A stretch of 64,000 nucleotides of DNA, taken from the IMG/VR virus record IMGVR_UViG_3300018077_000007, positions 20,524 to 84,523 of that record. One strand, given 5' to 3'. Of the stretch, positions 19,302-58,646 are shown one piece after another; positions within the stretch are counted from its first letter, which is position 1, and each line of letters opens with the position of its first letter. Both the position numbers and the translations under genes were made by a program. The notes below the pieces were generated by a model. That model was not told the DNA's origin and ran no database searches. It saw nothing but the letters and a program-made list of their open reading frames with translations. Source of the stretch: a virus.

Positions 19302-20999
19302 GTGGCCATCACCTTTGCGGCCCCCGCACCCACCGGGGCAGGGCTCTCGGCCTTCCTGGACGCCTACCTCAAGGGCCGGGGGGTTAAGCGGGAGGAAGAG
19401 AGCGACGAGCTCCGCCGCACCCTCGCGGCCATGCAGCTCCTTCAGGCTGGCCAGGCGTATCAGGCGGGCGAGCGCACGACTGCCGAACAAGCCCTCGTGC
19501 CAGAAGCGATTCAGCGGGCTCTCGCTGTGCCGGAGCGCACCACGGCGCTCCCGGCGACCGGCATCCCGGGCACCGAAGCCGTGCCCCAGGTCTCGGAATA
19601 CCCCGGCTATGCCGCGCCCGCCGAGATGCCAGGGCGCACCGTTCCGCTTGGACGCACCCCCGCCGATGTGCTGTCCGCCTTGCAGCCTGAGCAGATGGTG
19701 GCGTTGCTGAAACACGCGCCCGGCGTGCTCCCCGCGATGGGGCTCCAGAGCGAGGAACAGATCCGCCAGCGGGAACGCCGGGAGCAAGGCCGCCAGAAGA
19801 TGCGCACCCTCTATGCGCAAATTCAAGACCTGGGGAAGTCCCGCCGGTGGATTGACGAGCTGGACAAGGAAATCGAGGGGATGGGGGTTCTCCTGGAGAT
19901 GGCCGACACTCCCGAGCAAATGGCGGGGGTGCAGGGCGAGCGCCGCAAGCTGTTGGTGACTCGGAAAACCCTCGAAGATGACGAGATTGAGCGCACGCTT
20001 GGCCCGCAGGAGAAAACGCGCATCTGGGAGGCCGTGGAGACCGCGCGGGTCGCCAAACTCAAGGGCACAGATGTGGCCCCCGCCATGAGTGCGTTGCACC
20101 AAGCGATCGGCACCGCCACGACAAAATTCGGGCGGGCCGAGGGGGAGAAGATCACGGATCGCATGTCGAAGAAACTCCTCGATGATCTCGTGGAGGACCC
20201 GACCGAGCGCGAGTTTCATCGGGCCGTCTGGACCGACGTGCGGGGGCGGCTCACGGCGAATGAACCCTGGTCCCCGGCGCTCTGGGCCAAGTCGGCGCGC
20301 GCCGTGATCGCAGCGGACCCGCAGCGGTACGGGGCGATGGGGTTCACCCTCCTCCAACATAAAACGGTCCCTGACTGGTTCAAGGAGGCATTCTTTGCGG
20401 GGGCGGGCACCGTGCCGGGACTGACGGACAAGGGACTCCCGCCAGAGATCCATGTCGGGAAGATCCAAGAGGAAGACGAGGCCCGTCGGCAAGGTCGGTT
20501 GCCGACGTTGCAGGGCACGATTCAGAAAGCGCAAGCCTGGGTGCAGGGAAAGGCCACCCGCGATCCGGTGGCCTTGGCGCAATTGCGCCAGATCACGCAG
20601 GGGCAAGTCGATCAGGCCCAGCGGGATGTGCGCGACGCCGAACGCCATTTGGTCGAGGCTCAGAAGGAAGGCTTCCGGATGAGGGACTTCCTGCCAGGAC
20701 TGGAAGCGAAAGTGACGGCCGCGAATGAAGTCGTCAAAGCGCGGGTCGCTGACCTGAAAGCGGTCGAGCAAATGGTGGTGGCGTCGCTGCCGCCGGGCCT
20801 GCGGGAGGTGTATGAAAAAGGCAAACCCGCGCCTGCACCGCCCCCGCCAGACATGAACCAGGTTCGAGCCCGGCAGAAGGCCCTGACCGAGGAGGAACAC
20901 GCGAAGGAAGGGGCCACGCCCGAGAAGATCAAGGCGGCGGTGAAAGCGCGACTGCAACAGGAGTTTCCGACCCTTCCCTCCATATATTTCCCCCGATAA
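19302..20999 (+). CDS. Putative ejection/internal virion protein
   Basis: 565-aa helical protein immediately before the giant gene. Confidence 0.6.
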   Translation: MAITFAAPAPTGAGLSAFLDAYLKGRGVKREEESDELRRTLAAMQLLQAGQAYQAGERTTAEQALVPEAIQRALAVPERTTALPATGIPGTEAVPQVSEYPGYAAPAEMPGRTVPLGRTPADVLSALQPEQMVALLKHAPGVLPAMGLQSEEQIRQRERREQGRQKMRTLYAQIQDLGKSRRWIDELDKEIEGMGVLLEMADTPEQMAGVQGERRKLLVTRKTLEDDEIERTLGPQEKTRIWEAVETARVAKLKGTDVAPAMSALHQAIGTATTKFGRAEGEKITDRMSKKLLDDLVEDPTEREFHRAVWTDVRGRLTANEPWSPALWAKSARAVIAADPQRYGAMGFTLLQHKTVPDWFKEAFFAGAGTVPGLTDKGLPPEIHVGKIQEEDEARRQGRLPTLQGTIQKAQAWVQGKATRDPVALAQLRQITQGQVDQAQRDVRDAERHLVEAQKEGFRMRDFLPGLEAKVTAANEVVKARVADLKAVEQMVVASLPPGLREVYEKGKPAPAPPPPDMNQVRARQKALTEEEHAKEGATPEKIKAAVKARLQQEFPTLPSIYFPR

Positions 21000-53220: not shown

Positions 53221-54030
53221 GTGAGCCGCTATCGGCGCGTGCTAACTCGCATCTGGGAGGATGACAAATTCCCATCCCTTTCTGTCGATGGCCGCCTCCT
53301 CTTTCTCTACCATTTGACCTCACCCCGGTCCACGCCGTTCCTCCTCTACGTGGAAGGCCCGGGAGGCATAGCCGATGCCTTACGCTTGCCTTCGGCTAGG
53401 CTTCGCTTAGCCATGACTGAAGTCTCCAGAAATATGATGGTTGATTACGCAGATGACGGGTCCCTAATGGTGTTCCTCCCACAGGCCCTCACGATCCCAG
53501 AGAACGCGCCAGAGAGCCTGAACGCTATAAAAACCTGGACAAACCTGTTCCACGATCTCCCTAAAACACCGTTTCGAAACAAGTGCTTGAGCCATTGGCT
53601 AAGCCTTGGCGATGGCATACACCATGCCTTCACCCTTGCCTTCGTCAAGGCATGCACTATGGCTAACACTATGGCCCCCATACAGGAGCAGGAGCAGGAG
53701 CAGGAGCAGGAACCCCCTATAGTCCCCCACGGGGGACCTGATCAGGTTCAAGTTCAAGCGCAAGACCTCCTCGGATTTTTGAACCGGAAAGCCGAGAAGA
53801 GCTTTCGGGGGGTGCCGGTCAATCTCCGTCCGATCATGGCTCGGCTGAAAGAAGGCGCAACGGTGGAGGACTGTCGGGGCGTGATCGCCCGAAAGGTGCG
53901 CGAGTGGAAGGGCACGGAGCAGGAGAAGTATCTCCGACCCGAGACCCTGTTCGGCGCGACGAAGTTCCACGGCTATCTCGGCCAGCAAATGCCGGAGGAG
54001 CCGAGCGATGCTGAACGACGAATGCCCTGA
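53221..54030 (+). CDS. Phage replication initiator / replisome organizer
   Basis: RIWEDDKF..LS.DGRLLFLY, QEQEQEQE linker, C-terminal YLRPETLFGATKFHGYL. Confidence 0.85.
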   Translation: MSRYRRVLTRIWEDDKFPSLSVDGRLLFLYHLTSPRSTPFLLYVEGPGGIADALRLPSARLRLAMTEVSRNMMVDYADDGSLMVFLPQALTIPENAPESLNAIKTWTNLFHDLPKTPFRNKCLSHWLSLGDGIHHAFTLAFVKACTMANTMAPIQEQEQEQEQEPPIVPHGGPDQVQVQAQDLLGFLNRKAEKSFRGVPVNLRPIMARLKEGATVEDCRGVIARKVREWKGTEQEKYLRPETLFGATKFHGYLGQQMPEEPSDAERRMP

Positions 54031-54325
54031 CTGCGAGGTTCGGCTGAAGAAGGGTACCTGCCCGAAGTGCGGGTGGACCGGGACCCTGACGATCCTGCCC
54101 CCTCGCGGCGCGGCCTTGTCGTGGGAATTCACGTCGCCCGCCGAGCTGCTGGATCCCGAGGCCGTGCCGAGGCTGGTCAAGGAACTGGTAGCAGAGCTCT
54201 CATTGGACGCGCCCCGCACGCCGGGGGTGCGAGCAGAGATGCACCCCTGTTCGAGATGCGGCATCGCGTTCGCCGGGGACTACCGGGAGCCCGTGTGCTC
54301 GAATTGCTGGTTTACGGAACGCTAA
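54008..54325 (+). CDS. Zinc-finger hypothetical protein
   Basis: GGAGGAG RBS; four CxxC. Confidence 0.6.
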   Translation: MLNDECPDCEVRLKKGTCPKCGWTGTLTILPPRGAALSWEFTSPAELLDPEAVPRLVKELVAELSLDAPRTPGVRAEMHPCSRCGIAFAGDYREPVCSNCWFTER

Positions 54326-54846
54326 TGGCATACTCCAGCTATTTCGAACAACTCAAACATCCCAAGTGGCAGAAGAAGCGTCTTGAGATTCTTCAGCTCA
54401 ATGAATTTACCTGCGAGGAGTGCGGTGCAGATGACCAGACGCTTCATATTCATCATTCCTATTACGAAAAGGGGCGCGCGCCTTGGGATTATCCTGAATC
54501 GAGCCTTCATTGTCTGTGTGCAGCCTGCCACCAAAGGATCCAGAATTCTCAAAGCCTCTTGCAGCGGCAAATTGGAAGGCTTGATCTTAGCGATACTGAA
54601 GTGATGATTGGCTACGCGATGGGGTTAGAGTTCCGTGCGTACCCAGTGGTTCGACTCCGCGTGTTCTCTTATGCGGTAGCGCAAGGCATCGGCGATGCGT
54701 GGGGCGTGACTCCAGAACAGATTATCGAAGCTCTTGAGGCGGGTCGGATCGACGGATATACACTGGACTCGTTGGTCCGGTTGCAGATCCAGCCACAATA
54801 CGGACTCGTGGGCGAGGTGCCCAACGCGGAGGGCAAGGAATGTTGA
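54325..54846 (+). CDS. HNH-family nuclease domain protein
   Basis: PKWQKKRLEIL..FTCEECG..LHIHH..PWDYP..LCAACH. Confidence 0.8.
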   Translation: MAYSSYFEQLKHPKWQKKRLEILQLNEFTCEECGADDQTLHIHHSYYEKGRAPWDYPESSLHCLCAACHQRIQNSQSLLQRQIGRLDLSDTEVMIGYAMGLEFRAYPVVRLRVFSYAVAQGIGDAWGVTPEQIIEALEAGRIDGYTLDSLVRLQIQPQYGLVGEVPNAEGKEC

Positions 54847-54992
54847 TCTCGATCAGCATCGCTTTGAGCGTGCTCGTGGTGGCCCTTGCGTGGGGCTGTC
54901 TCCGCGCCGCCGCGCATGGGGCGTAGGCCATCACCCCGACACCCCGAGTGCCGGTGGCCGTTGTGTTGGCCTGAAACAGAGAGGAGGATCTC

Positions 54993-55502
54993 ATGGCCGA
55001 ACTTCACACCCTACCGCCTATTGAGGCCGCTCCGCCATCCCCAGATCTCCCGGGCCAGATCGCTCGGCTCCAGCGGCACCTTCAGCGCCGGAAGGACGCT
55101 CTGGCGCGACTGGAGAAAACCCTGGCCCAGACTCGGCAGAAGCTCCGGAAGACGGCGGAACTCTACGAACTGGCCCGGGTGGCGCTGGCGATCGCGCTCC
55201 CCTTGGCCCGGCAGGATCGTCCCACCGAGGTCGCCGCAGTCTTGGAGGAAACGATCAGCGCGATTCTGTACGGGTCCCCCGAGGCACGGACGCGCATCTT
55301 CGCAGCGGCCCGGAAACGGGATGAGGCGCTCTTGACGCTGCGGGCGAAGGTGACGGAGTTACACGGGGCATTGAGCCGGGCCAAGCGCACGATTCGGGGA
55401 TGGCGGAGCCACGGGTGGACGCAGACGGAAGAGGCGCAAGGATGGGCACTCTACCAAAGCTCTCCCGAGATGCAGGAGATCAACAGGGCGCTCGGGGAAT
55501 AA
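54993..55502 (+). CDS. Coiled-coil hypothetical protein directly upstream of the array
   Basis: GAGGAGG RBS; TAA ends 2 nt before the first repeat. Confidence 0.7.
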   Translation: MAELHTLPPIEAAPPSPDLPGQIARLQRHLQRRKDALARLEKTLAQTRQKLRKTAELYELARVALAIALPLARQDRPTEVAAVLEETISAILYGSPEARTRIFAAARKRDEALLTLRAKVTELHGALSRAKRTIRGWRSHGWTQTEEAQGWALYQSSPEMQEINRALGE

Positions 55503-55504
55503 AC

Positions 55505-56085
55505 GAGCGAGCCAGAGGAGTAAAGGCACCCGCGATGAAGGAGCGAGCCGTCAAGATGGAGTCCCCCGTTATCACGGAGCGAGCCGCCAGGTTCAAGACA
55601 CCCATATCTCAAGAGCGAGCCGCGTTGTTGGAGACATCCGCGACAAGAGAGCGAGCCGGTAAACAGGAGGCACCCGTGATGGAGAAGCGAGCCGTAAGAG
55701 GGAAGTCACCCGCGACGAGCAAGCGAGCCGCCCTGAACAAGCTACCTGTGGAGGAAAAGCGAGCCGCCCAAGGTGAGGCACCCGTAATGAATGTGCGAGC
55801 CGGTAAAGGGGAGACCCCCATGAGGCGGAAGCGAGCCACGCGAACGAAGACCCCCGCAAGCGAGGAGCGAGCCGACAAAGGTGAGGCACCCGTCCAAGAA
55901 GAGCGAGCCGTGAGAATAGAGGCACCCGCTTCAGAAGAGCGAGCCGCGCAGAACGAGACACCCGTCTCAGGAAAGCGAGCCGCGCTCTTTAAGCCACCCG
56001 TGGGGGGAAAGCGAGCCTCGCTCGGTGAGTTACCCGTGACGGAAAAGCGAGCCGAAGAGATTGAGTCACCCGGACGAAATGAGCG
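55505..56085 (+). ncRNA. TIGR-type tandem interspaced guide RNA array, 16 x 36 nt
   Basis: Unit = RAGCGAGCC-N9-RAGNCACCC-N9; exact 36-nt period, variable 9-nt spacers, terminal partial repeat GAGCG; adjoins a Nop-domain gene. Confidence 0.9.
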
Positions 56086-56788
56086 TCTTTCTCCTCATCT
56101 CCCGCGCCTCGCCACGCTTTTCCAGTCGATCCAGCGAGATCGCGTAGGACTTGAACGGTCGCTGGCCACCAAAGCCGACGTGCATGATCCGAGGGCAAAG
56201 GAGATTTATGAACAGTTGATCCGCCTCGAAGAGACCGTCGTGGCCTATCTCCACACGGAATGTCATCGGAGCCCGGTCTGGCCCTGGCTCTCCAGCGTGA
56301 AGGGGATCGGCGAGCGCCTGGGGGGGATGCTGGTCGGGCTCATCGACATTCACCGCGCCCCGTCAATTTCAAGTCTCTGGAAGTTCGCGGGGCTTGCCCC
56401 GGGGGCAGATCGCCGCGTCAAGGGGCAGAAGCTCCCCTACAACAACCTCCTGAAAAAGACGTGCTTCCTCGTGGCGCGCCAATTCATCCTCGCCGGGACG
56501 CAACCCTACGAGGGCGTCTACCGGGAGGCTAAGGCGTATTACGAGCAGAACCGCCCCGAGTGGCGCCCAGGGCACTGCGATTTGGCGGCGCGGCGGAAGG
56601 CCGTCAAATTGTTTCTCGGACACCTCCACACAAGGTGGTGTGAGGCCGAGGGGCTCCCGATCCGGCCCCCCTATGCGATGGGGGTTTTGCACCATGATGG
56701 ATATATTCCGCCGCCAGAACGTGTTCAATGGTCTGTCCCACCAGCGAGCGCAAACCCAGGACTTCAGTCCGGGGACAAGCGAGCCTAG
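56036..56788 (+). CDS. TasA-like Nop-domain RNA-guided DNA-binding protein (start uncertain; frame open back to 55535/55400)
   Basis: Coiled coil then WLSSVKGIGERLGGML, ISSLWKFAGL, PYNNLLK, AARRKAVKLFL; no DEDD/RuvC or HNH domain seen. Confidence 0.85.
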   Translation: MTEKRAEEIESPGRNERLSPHLPRLATLFQSIQRDRVGLERSLATKADVHDPRAKEIYEQLIRLEETVVAYLHTECHRSPVWPWLSSVKGIGERLGGMLVGLIDIHRAPSISSLWKFAGLAPGADRRVKGQKLPYNNLLKKTCFLVARQFILAGTQPYEGVYREAKAYYEQNRPEWRPGHCDLAARRKAVKLFLGHLHTRWCEAEGLPIRPPYAMGVLHHDGYIPPPERVQWSVPPASANPGLQSGDKRA

Positions 56789-57875
56789 CATGCAGATTAC
56801 GCTGAAGCTGCGACTTCGGGATCGGCATGCGGCGAAGCTCGCCCGCCACGCCAGGGCGGTCAACTATGTATGGAACTACTGCAACGAGCGACAGCGGCAG
56901 GCGGTCCGCGAGTGCCGCCGCTGGCTCAGCTACCCAGCGCTGGCGGCGCTGACGGCAGGCACGAGCGTGGATCTCGACCTCCACGCCCATACGATTCAGC
57001 GCGTGTGCCTTGCCTATGCCGCCGCACGCCGAGCGCATAAGAAGCCGTGGCTGAGGTGGCGCGGACGGCGGTCACTCGGCTGGGTGCCGTTCAACACGGG
57101 CCACGTTTCGTTCGATGGCGAAGCCTTCACCTTTCGTGGTGTTCGCTACGAGACGATGCACCTCCGGGAGATTCCGACCGGGGCGGTGATCGGTGCTGGT
57201 TCTTTCAACGCTGACGCCCGTGGTCGTTGGTACATCAACCTGCCAGTCGAAGTGCTGGAAGCCACCAGCGCCAGCATTACCCACGTCGGGATCGACCTGG
57301 GCCTCAAAGACTTCGCTACGCTCTCGACCGGCGAAAAGATCGCCGCCCCGCGTTTCTACCGGGCGTCCGAGACCAAGCTGGCGACGGCGCAGCGCGCCCG
57401 CAAGACACGTCACGCTCGCGCGATCCACCGAAAGATCGCCGCCCGCCGGCGGGATTTTCTGCACAAGACGAGCGTACAACTTGTGAAGCGCTTCGGGCTC
57501 ATCTTCGTCGGCGACATCAACCCCTCGCAACTCGTTCGGACCACGATGGCGAAGAGCGTACTCGACGCCGGGTGGTCGAACTTCCGGGCCATGCTCCGCT
57601 ACAAATCGCGATTACGCGGTGGTGGGGTGTGCTTGGAAGTCTCGGAACATTTGAGTACCCAGACCTGCTCGGAGTGCGGCAGGTTGCCCGCTTCGAGGCC
57701 GAGAGGTATCGCAGGTCTGCGTGAGAGGGTGTGGCGGTGCGACGACTGCGGGACGGTCCACGACCGCGACGTGAACGCCGCCCGCAACATCCTCCGTCTG
57801 GGACAGCAGACGCTCGGAGGAGGAGCCCATGTCTGAGATCGGGAAGCCCCGGTCTTTAGACCAAGGAGCTGTCAC
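56726..57875 (+). mobile_element. IS200/IS605-family tnpB-only element (left boundary 56726-56729)
   Basis: Left-end hairpin CCCAGGACTTCAGTCCGGGG; right end GAAGCCCCGGTCTTTAGACCAAGGAGCTGTCAC; removing it restores an in-frame TGA for the Tas gene. Confidence 0.8.
56790..57836 (+). CDS. tnpB: Compact TnpB (348 aa) with rearranged RuvC-II
   Basis: GIDLG; FVGD instead of xED; downstream EVSE; CSECG/CDDCG; HDRDVNAARNI. Confidence 0.93.
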   Translation: MQITLKLRLRDRHAAKLARHARAVNYVWNYCNERQRQAVRECRRWLSYPALAALTAGTSVDLDLHAHTIQRVCLAYAAARRAHKKPWLRWRGRRSLGWVPFNTGHVSFDGEAFTFRGVRYETMHLREIPTGAVIGAGSFNADARGRWYINLPVEVLEATSASITHVGIDLGLKDFATLSTGEKIAAPRFYRASETKLATAQRARKTRHARAIHRKIAARRRDFLHKTSVQLVKRFGLIFVGDINPSQLVRTTMAKSVLDAGWSNFRAMLRYKSRLRGGGVCLEVSEHLSTQTCSECGRLPASRPRGIAGLRERVWRCDDCGTVHDRDVNAARNILRLGQQTLGGGAHV

Positions 57876-58002
57876 TGAACACGGTTCCTGGGCGCCGCGC
57901 GAAGAGGACTTGGATCCCGCCATTCGGCAGCGCGAGCGACGCCAAATCCTATTGAAGTGTGCTGGTTACCGGCGCGCCCGACGACGCACAGGGCCGACAT
58001 GA
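57829..58002 (+). CDS. 57-aa ORF whose start is supplied by the IS right end
   Basis: GGAGGAGGAG RBS; MSEIGKPRSLDQGAVT-EHGSWAPREEDLDPAIRQRERRQ; ATGA overlap with next gene. Confidence 0.45.
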   Translation: MSEIGKPRSLDQGAVTEHGSWAPREEDLDPAIRQRERRQILLKCAGYRRARRRTGPT

Positions 58003-58646
58003 TTCAACACAAACATTGGCAGTTCGAACGAGAAGAAGATCTCGACGAGTGTCTTCGGCAACGGGCGCAGGGCGGGTTTGCCGAGAACCTTGAAACATGC
58101 GAATTAGTTCAACTCGCCGACTCGTTGCAGCGGTGGGCGAAGACCGGGCACAAAAACCTACCGGAGTATCTCGAATCCGTCTGCGGGTTGAACTATAGAT
58201 CTCTGCGTCGCTATCTGAGCATTGTGGAGGCACTGGCCACGGTCGGGGAGCCACTCAGGAAGGCCGTGCGGGATCTGCTCTTGGCAATGGGGGCGAAGAA
58301 GGCCAGCATTCTGGCACCGTGGATCGAGGAGCAGGGCGAGGCGGTGACGGTGGAGGCCGTCGCGGCGTGGGCCGAGCAGGCGGCGGGCATGACCGAGGCG
58401 GCGTTTCAGGAAGCGGTGACCACGGCGCGCGGGGCGAAGCCCCGGGGGGCGGCAGGCGACGCCGAGGCGCAGGTCTTGAAACTCCTGCTGTCCGTCGTGC
58501 CTCCCGAACGATATGCGTGGGCCGAGCGGGTCTACCGGATGGCCGCGCGGGTGGCTGAGACGACGAACCCGATCTATGCGTATCTGGTGGCCTTGGAGTT
58601 GCTCGCGCAGGACTTGGCGCACCAGGGGCATCCGGTGGAGGGATAA
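57999..58646 (+). CDS. Hypothetical helical protein
   Basis: MIQHKHWQFEREEDLDECLRQR..; possible HTH LNYRSLRRYL. Confidence 0.65.
   Translation: MIQHKHWQFEREEDLDECLRQRAQGGFAENLETCELVQLADSLQRWAKTGHKNLPEYLESVCGLNYRSLRRYLSIVEALATVGEPLRKAVRDLLLAMGAKKASILAPWIEEQGEAVTVEAVAAWAEQAAGMTEAAFQEAVTTARGAKPRGAAGDAEAQVLKLLLSVVPPERYAWAERVYRMAARVAETTNPIYAYLVALELLAQDLAHQGHPVEG

Follow-up and report, generated by a model that had tools for sequence, protein, structure and literature searches.

The 64,000-nucleotide window analyzed here (positions 20,524 to 84,523 of the IMG/VR virus record IMGVR_UViG_3300018077_000007) carries a dual-repeat TIGR array (TIGR, tandem interspaced guide RNA) that runs, without a stop codon, into the reading frame of tasA, a gene for a Nop-domain protein lacking a nuclease domain. 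The array is probably, on balance, the 5′ part of the tasA frame on a single transcript, with between 1 and 16 of its units read as a tolerated N-terminal tail and with guide maturation competing with translation. The full record comprises 84.5 kb (64% G+C) and is estimated to be ~90% complete; the identical sequence is present in freshwater-sediment metagenomes, no RNA run was found to contain it, and the array pieces recovered from runs X3–X5 are identical to the window, with 0 other letters. The array and the frame that it shares with tasA are laid out as follows, in window coordinates:

55505–56080, plus strand: dual-repeat TIGR array, 16 units at an exact spacing of 36 nucleotides (nt).
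56081–56085, plus strand: a 17th, truncated edge repeat (GAGCG, translated as E-R), abutting the conserved TasA helix 1.
56081–56788, plus strand: TasA body, 235 amino acids (aa), coiled-coil helices and a Nop-type domain, without a nuclease domain.
55400–56788, plus strand: open reading frame (ORF) of 462 aa counted from its first ATG, the frame being open from 55325 and continuing through the entire array into tasA.

The region 55505–56080 is a genuine TIGR guide array on the tas strand. Each unit comprises an edge repeat (RAGCGAGCC(G)), a 9-nt spacer A, a loop repeat (RAGnCACCC(G)), and a 9-nt spacer B; tabulated by column, a unit has 9–10 fixed, 8–9 variable, 9–10 semi-fixed, and 8–9 variable positions, and the first variable letter is G after the edge in 13 of the 16 units and after the loop in 14. 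Both repeats open with RAG and close with CC(C)G, and so share box D and box C motifs; this fits the covariation rule for the two boxes in dual-repeat TIGR arrays set out in the accessible text of Faure et al. (2025; PMC12045711). A pyrimidine directly follows the G of the loop repeat in 15 of 16 units. In related loci, the edge word AGCGAGCC recurs every 36 nt on both sides of tasA. All 16 edges encode their arginine by CGA, a codon that accounts for only 13% of arginine codons in 23 long ORFs of the phage; the constraint thus acts on nucleotides, and this is an RNA or DNA repeat and not a protein repeat. The spacers are purine-rich (A 0.30, G 0.37, C 0.16, T 0.17), with a G+C content below the 64% of the phage. 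Comparison of the spacer pairs with the phage's own 84.5 kb gave 10 sites with at most 3 mismatches in 18 letters, 10 shuffled controls gave 3–9 such sites, and none had fewer than 2 mismatches; Rfam gave no match across 54500–58500. The truncated edge is followed by the tasA body and not by a terminator; array and body lie on the same strand and adjoin directly.

In the tas frame the array holds 0 stop codons; the other two plus-strand frames hold 11 and 7, and the minus-strand frames 6, 1, and 5. A preliminary description of the window had proposed that all 16 units are open in this frame and translate as (E/K)RA-xxx-(E/K)xP-xxx 12-mers, and this holds with three unit exceptions: unit 9 begins with V (GTG), unit 4 reads ETS, and unit 7 has KLP, from CCT. 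The principal candidate start codons within the array are these:

55535–55537, plus strand: first in-array ATG, in spacer B of unit 1, 33 nt past the upstream stop, with AAGG 8 nt and GAGG 16 nt upstream.
55665–55681, plus strand: AGGAGG (55665–55670), 8 nt, and ATG 55679, in unit 5; the best Shine-Dalgarno-like start of the region.
56024–56038, plus strand: GGTGAG (56024–56029), 6 nt, and GTG 56036, in unit 15; the last in-frame start ahead of the conserved body.

The in-frame ATG 55400, ATG 55535, and GTG 56036 with its upstream GGTGAG are all present, as first described, and the claim that no in-frame start lies between the end of the array and the conserved domain is borne out, ATG 56079 being out of frame. 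Sixteen in-frame ATG, GTG, or TTG codons occur between 55400 and 56036, and the next is GTG 56180; CTG, ATT, ATC, and ATA, read from the sequence, are likewise absent in frame between 56085 and 56180. Initiation at GTG 56180 would cost residues 1–33, including Q15, Q18, and R21 of helix 1, which are invariant in a 13-sequence alignment (A2). Because no in-frame start follows the array short of this helix-deleting GTG, translation of TasA very probably initiates within or upstream of the array. Even with initiation at GTG 56036, a full edge repeat (56045–56053) and the truncated edge would be passed before the body is reached. In public data the gene is called (P0001; 369 aa, beginning MEKRAV) from ATG 55679. 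Ranking the starts by their Shine-Dalgarno motifs was tried and rejected as too crude, 39 of 112 crude phage ORFs having a Shine-Dalgarno-like 4-mer against a background of 26%. The preliminary description had left a choice between a dual-function array and a start inside it; this is supported in part, in that initiation in or before the array stands.

The protein is assigned to TasA on the basis of Nop homology without a nuclease domain. Searched against solved chains, a family profile (A1) matched 9mty_A (E 2e-49) and TasH chains, 21kl_A among them (E 1e-33), with the IS110-family transposase IS621 reaching only 0.17; the single TasA sequence matched the first two at 5e-17 and 4e-9, respectively. 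The deposited title of 9mty_A is that of an IS116/IS110/IS902 C-terminal-domain protein, which we take to be TaTasR, and its alignment begins at query residue 3 and so covers the stretch of helix 1. Pfam gave only a sub-threshold match to Transposase_20 (E 0.017). Homologs of TasA numbered 48 in a near-length search and 3089 in a representative library. The body also contains a candidate active site:

56672–56674 (Y198) and 56693–56695 (H205), plus strand: putative processing dyad for the guide precursor (pre-tigRNA), aligned to Y289/H296 of SpTasH.

Among relatives, Y198 is invariant and H205 nearly so (alignments A1 and A2). In the accessible text on SpTasH, Y289 and H296 are the catalytic residues of a metal-independent pre-tigRNA cleavage (PMC13421893); in SpTasH it is the edge repeats that this dyad cuts.

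A mechanism may be proposed from this configuration. The upstream ORF, the array, and tasA would be carried on a single transcript, since the plus strand has no terminator-like site between 54993 and 56590 and no sigma-70-like promoter in 54000–58500. Ribosomes would initiate at ATG 55535 and/or at internal Shine-Dalgarno-like starts, such as the AGGAGG-ATG at 55679, and would translate between 1 and 16 units into an (E/K)RAxxx(E/K)xPxxx tail, charged and punctuated by prolines, ahead of the coiled-coil and Nop body. The tail of 192 residues (A32, E27, R25, K18, and P16; C, H, W, and Y are absent) is expected to be disordered, in agreement with its composition and its position before helix 1. 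It is most likely a tolerated by-product of an array packed against a gene. The E-R-A frame receives the fewest stops from the repeats (expected stops in the window are 3.8 in the E-R-A frame and 6.5 and 9.6 in the other plus-strand frames), and in-frame starts arise easily in it because the last letter of box C opens a codon. TasA would cut at the edge repeats, severing the start codon from the body of the gene, and would in this way limit its own synthesis; as the Y/H dyad is kept, the maturation of guides and the translation of TasA would be expected to draw, in competition, on one RNA. We put the chance that most of the array is translated at about even, and a negative feedback linked to processing, argued by analogy, seems to us just as evenly balanced.

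Relatives of the window TasA provide further cases of units read as protein. Whether units are NEVERTHELESS translated was judged from the relatives' gene calls at the protein level, the criterion being three or more xRA motifs spaced 12 residues apart. By this measure, 26 of 191 relatives had three or more in-frame units (20 N-terminal, 3 C-terminal, and 3 within the Nop domain), and all of these translated units use the E-R-A frame. N-terminal units number up to 11 in P0018 and 8 each in P0050, P0071, and P0151; C-terminal units range from 7 to 12 in P0123 (12), P0053, and P0109; and the 16 units of the window are the longest in-frame run among the sequences compared. Leaders not derived from an array precede the units in P0017 and P0096. 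In P0066, residues 61–179 and 310–363 align to window residues 44–160 and 157–210 and flank 10 units; as the two halves of the Nop domain lie on either side, translation of the units is obligatory in this protein. The closest relatives, P0002 (83% identity), P0003, and P0008, pass from their units straight into S(P/V)HLPR(L/I)ATL(F/Y)Q with no Met between, and by eye no Met separates the last unit from the helix in 14 of 19 N-terminal-unit relatives, GTG and TTG starts being invisible in proteins. A search for longer homologs found no fused form above 412 aa, which is weak evidence; when A2, P0066, and P0071 were used to scan viral contigs, only relatives at 42% identity or below, or none, came up.

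Several features of these relatives may be recorded separately. The Nop-internal units (10 in P0066, 9 in P0152, and 5 in P0059) occupy the same site as a CxxC...CxxC insert in other relatives. P0096 has a zinc-ribbon-like CxxC...CxxC leader, four in-frame units, and a TasA body, so that the units would link two domains. At locus L084 (3657–3837) the TasA ORF continues past the Y/H loop into four units of a downstream array before its first stop.

The case for the entire array being kept open is only moderate, and suggestive. Null models were built from 20,000 shuffles each. When all 9+9 letters were shuffled within each spacer, 5.2 stops were expected and the probability of none was 0.004; shuffling only the 8+8 clearly free letters gave 3.8 expected stops (P = 0.015), a pooled-letter shuffle gave P = 0.015, and two further runs in which the array was taken as 15 units gave P = 0.038 and 0.031. 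Related loci for comparison were collected by protein (6 + 80 + 18 + 42) and by the DNA pattern of the units (26); to count as an array, a chain needed a minimum of 4 or 5 edges and no more than 1 mismatch, other edge words being uncounted and exact duplicates dropped. Among 32 arrays of at least 8 units, that of the window is the only tas-adjacent one to have a stop-free plus-strand frame, and 7 of 31 CC(C)G-type arrays are stop-free against 4.2 expected (hand-summed from the probabilities of no stops).

That some arrays are held open is suggested, though not proved, by a second phage. This record (G001; 86,757 nt, with terminal repeats, estimated to be ~100% complete) carries on its minus strand 41 units of the window type in two blocks at ~185–2276 (locus L177, G001:C1:1-7000). 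No tas homolog was found in it (best E 0.76 with filters off), and beyond the units it has no similarity to the window phage. Of these, 37 form strict 36-nt chains (5 edges or more), and in them the E-R-A frame contains 0 stops where 5.9 would be expected, the probabilities of no stops for the three runs being 0.033, 0.157, and 0.349. An ORF of 385 aa spans the first array and ends in a stop codon that has a 4-nt overlap with the ATG of a 93-aa ORF; overlaps of this kind usually signal translational coupling. No Pfam or PHROG family matched either ORF. It is improbable, in our judgment, that the E-R-A frame of this lineage is held open by selection and that array polypeptides have a role of their own, so that arrays could persist detached from Tas. 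If this were true, spacers would be under a double constraint, and new genes and disordered protein segments would arise from TIGR arrays.

A number of observations weigh against translation of the array and self-processing as we propose them. Family-wide, openness of the frame is not under selection: 20 upstream tas-adjacent arrays lying in the tas frame have 64 stops where 67.0 are expected (for 19 upstream arrays in other frames, 66 against 73.2), 64 downstream arrays have 232 against 242.5, and all 127 arrays of at least 5 edges have 458 against ~494, hand-summed, a ratio of 0.93. The comparison of stop frequencies in homologous arrays that the preliminary description had suggested thus reveals no depletion. 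As 32 arrays with 8 or more units were examined, that of the window among them, a P near 0.03 may be a selection effect, and when column composition is kept only 1.6 stops are expected and P rises to 0.14; the original estimate of a few percent, called suggestive and not decisive, is a fair one with shuffles at 0.004–0.04 and this last value at 0.14. Spacer codons have a G+C content at third positions (GC3) of 0.56, against 0.74 in phage ORFs, and codon periodicity is not significant in the four free codons of each unit (T in 7, 15, and 8 of 64 at positions 1, 2, and 3; p 0.11). A codon-like signal in the spacers was rejected as evidence of coding, the T bias reaching p 0.0002 only when codons touching the repeats were included. 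A Met stands between the last unit and the helix, by eye, in 5 of the 19 N-terminal-unit relatives. In the accessible text of Faure et al. (2025; PMC12045711), TasR is required for processing but is not its catalyst, so that self-cleavage by TasA is an extrapolation from TasH.

Gene starts in the more distant relatives also differ from that of the window. A clade at 44%–51% identity (P0011 and L007) has its own MPRKKK start after an array lying in another frame, and many distant TasA genes begin at or after the last edge repeat, reading ERAM... in L054, L050, and L087. Homologous arrays with in-frame stops and a conserved downstream start, which had been named as evidence against a shared frame, therefore exist among distant relatives (16 stops in 14 units at L010, and the MPRKKK clade) but not in the nearest, P0002, P0003, and P0008. 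At L054, L050, L087, and L001 the start ATG is formed from the last A of the final edge's box C plus TG, and the end of the array and the start of the gene share letters.

Of the other explanations considered, one is a real though lesser possibility: that the overlap is minimal, TasA starting at GTG 56036 or GTG 56000, with only the last 1–2 units translated and the other 14 non-coding and open by chance given T-poor spacers. Such a chance opening would suit the column-preserving null (P 0.14), the undepleted stops of the family, and the low GC3 and missing codon periodicity of the spacers, and many relatives do begin right after the final edge (the ERAM... genes L054, L050, and L087). The Shine-Dalgarno-like motifs of these two GTG codons are, however, weak or absent compared with the AGGAGG at 8 nt from ATG 55679; nulls based on composition only give P 0.004–0.04; and the gene calls of relatives take in 7–11 units, two of them with leaders before the array. 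At the opposite extreme, the tail might be a selected, functional part of the protein and the array truly dual-coding, each spacer serving both as guide and as codons. The open frames of the window (0 stops against 3.3–5.2 expected) and of G001 (0 against 5.9 over 37 units) are what this would produce, and arrays inside Nop domains exist; we nevertheless consider it unlikely, because the repeats are fixed as nucleotides (CGA in 16 of 16 edges), the spacer residues have no conserved pattern beyond that dictated by the repeats, stops are not depleted family-wide, and no protein family matches the tail.

The remaining two explanations fare worse. An array left wholly untranslated, with TasA starting after it at GTG 56180 or at a non-canonical codon, would match the situation of most distant TasA genes, which start after their arrays; it is very unlikely here, since the interval 56085–56180 offers no in-frame ATG, GTG, or TTG (nor CTG, ATT, ATC, or ATA) and a start at 56180 deletes invariant residues of helix 1. 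We give almost no credence to an ordinary 12-residue protein repeat with no guide array: it would account for the open frame and for a period that is a multiple of three, but the third codon positions of the repeats are invariant while the codons of the supposed spacers vary freely, the same edge word occurs in arrays flanking tasA at more than 100 loci, most of them filled with stops, and the architecture agrees with the published definition of TIGR. We thus retain the reading in which the array forms the 5′ part of the tasA frame and is translated, in part or in whole, as a tolerated tail.

Two neighboring genes complete the locus:

54993–55502, plus strand: upstream ORF of 169 aa, coiled-coil-like, ending in a TAA stop 2 nt ahead of array unit 1.
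56790–57836, plus strand: TnpB gene of an IS200/IS605-type insertion sequence (IS), with Pfam matches to Cas12f1-like_TNB (4e-21) and OrfB_IS605 (2e-14).

The upstream ORF has only sub-threshold Pfam matches and no PHROG match, and a tblastn search of 146 further tas loci found no relative of it. The IS sits at the 3′ end of tasA, and its left end provides the last ~15 residues of TasA and the stop codon. Diverged copies of the IS in groundwater and sediment runs match the window only from ~56744–56948 to 57836, with other flanks beyond. TnpB was considered as a component of the TIGR system and ruled out, the IS copy being found in other contexts too.

The arrangement has practical consequences. 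Any possible tasA mRNA carries sites for its own processing downstream of the start codon and ahead of the body, and the protein keeps the cleavage dyad, making the proposed coupling directly testable. Gene callers assign arbitrary in-array starts to such genes (369 aa here, where 417–462 aa are possible), and array finders that mask coding sequence will miss in-frame arrays.

Dual-function RNAs that are both regulator and mRNA are familiar from SgrS/SgrT and RNAIII/hld, where the segment that codes and the one that acts as RNA are mostly distinct; in the window, by contrast, the guide units would each be codons themselves. The closest published relatives are the dual-repeat TIGR-TasA systems of Faure et al. 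(Science 2025; PMC12045711). As far as the accessible text of that paper describes them, these likewise have units of 36 nt in which edge and loop repeats alternate, with two spacers of ~9 nt, start and end motifs common to both repeats, an array ending in a truncated edge, and a nuclease-less Nop-domain protein beside the array on the same strand, in phage. The window differs in its box C, which is CC(C)G where theirs is CCA, and in having an array without a terminator that joins the tasA body in frame, with no start codon between. In SpTasH (NAR 2026; PMC13421893), the accessible text describes self-processing by a protein with a similar Tyr and His seven residues apart in a flexible C-terminal stretch of the Nop domain; TasH, however, has an HNH nuclease domain, that text does not report its array inside the gene, and processing by the TasA studied here is putative.

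Dual-repeat arrays inside tas coding sequences are described in general terms in the accessible part of a preprint by Xu et al. (bioRxiv 10.64898/2026.09.09.750476), which also presents TasA proteins as RNA-guided repressors. Like the window, their intragenic cases include an array at the 5′ end of a tas coding sequence with the frame unbroken, and a coupling of maturation with translation is proposed there too. Our literature search found the in-frame arrangement only in this preprint; its supplements and the TIGRSafari tables lay outside the search and may list the record. Their worked case, BlTasA, has a stem-loop array in the wedge loop of a protein without the Y/H loop, as far as the accessible text goes, whereas the window has a 16-unit dual-repeat array, the rarer case in that study, and a TasA in which Y/H is kept; self-cleavage of its own mRNA is for that reason a concrete prediction. 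The in-frame guide array is thus an arrangement already known from Xu et al.; the window is a clear dual-repeat example of it, in which the dyad sharpens the prediction and leaves its kind unchanged.

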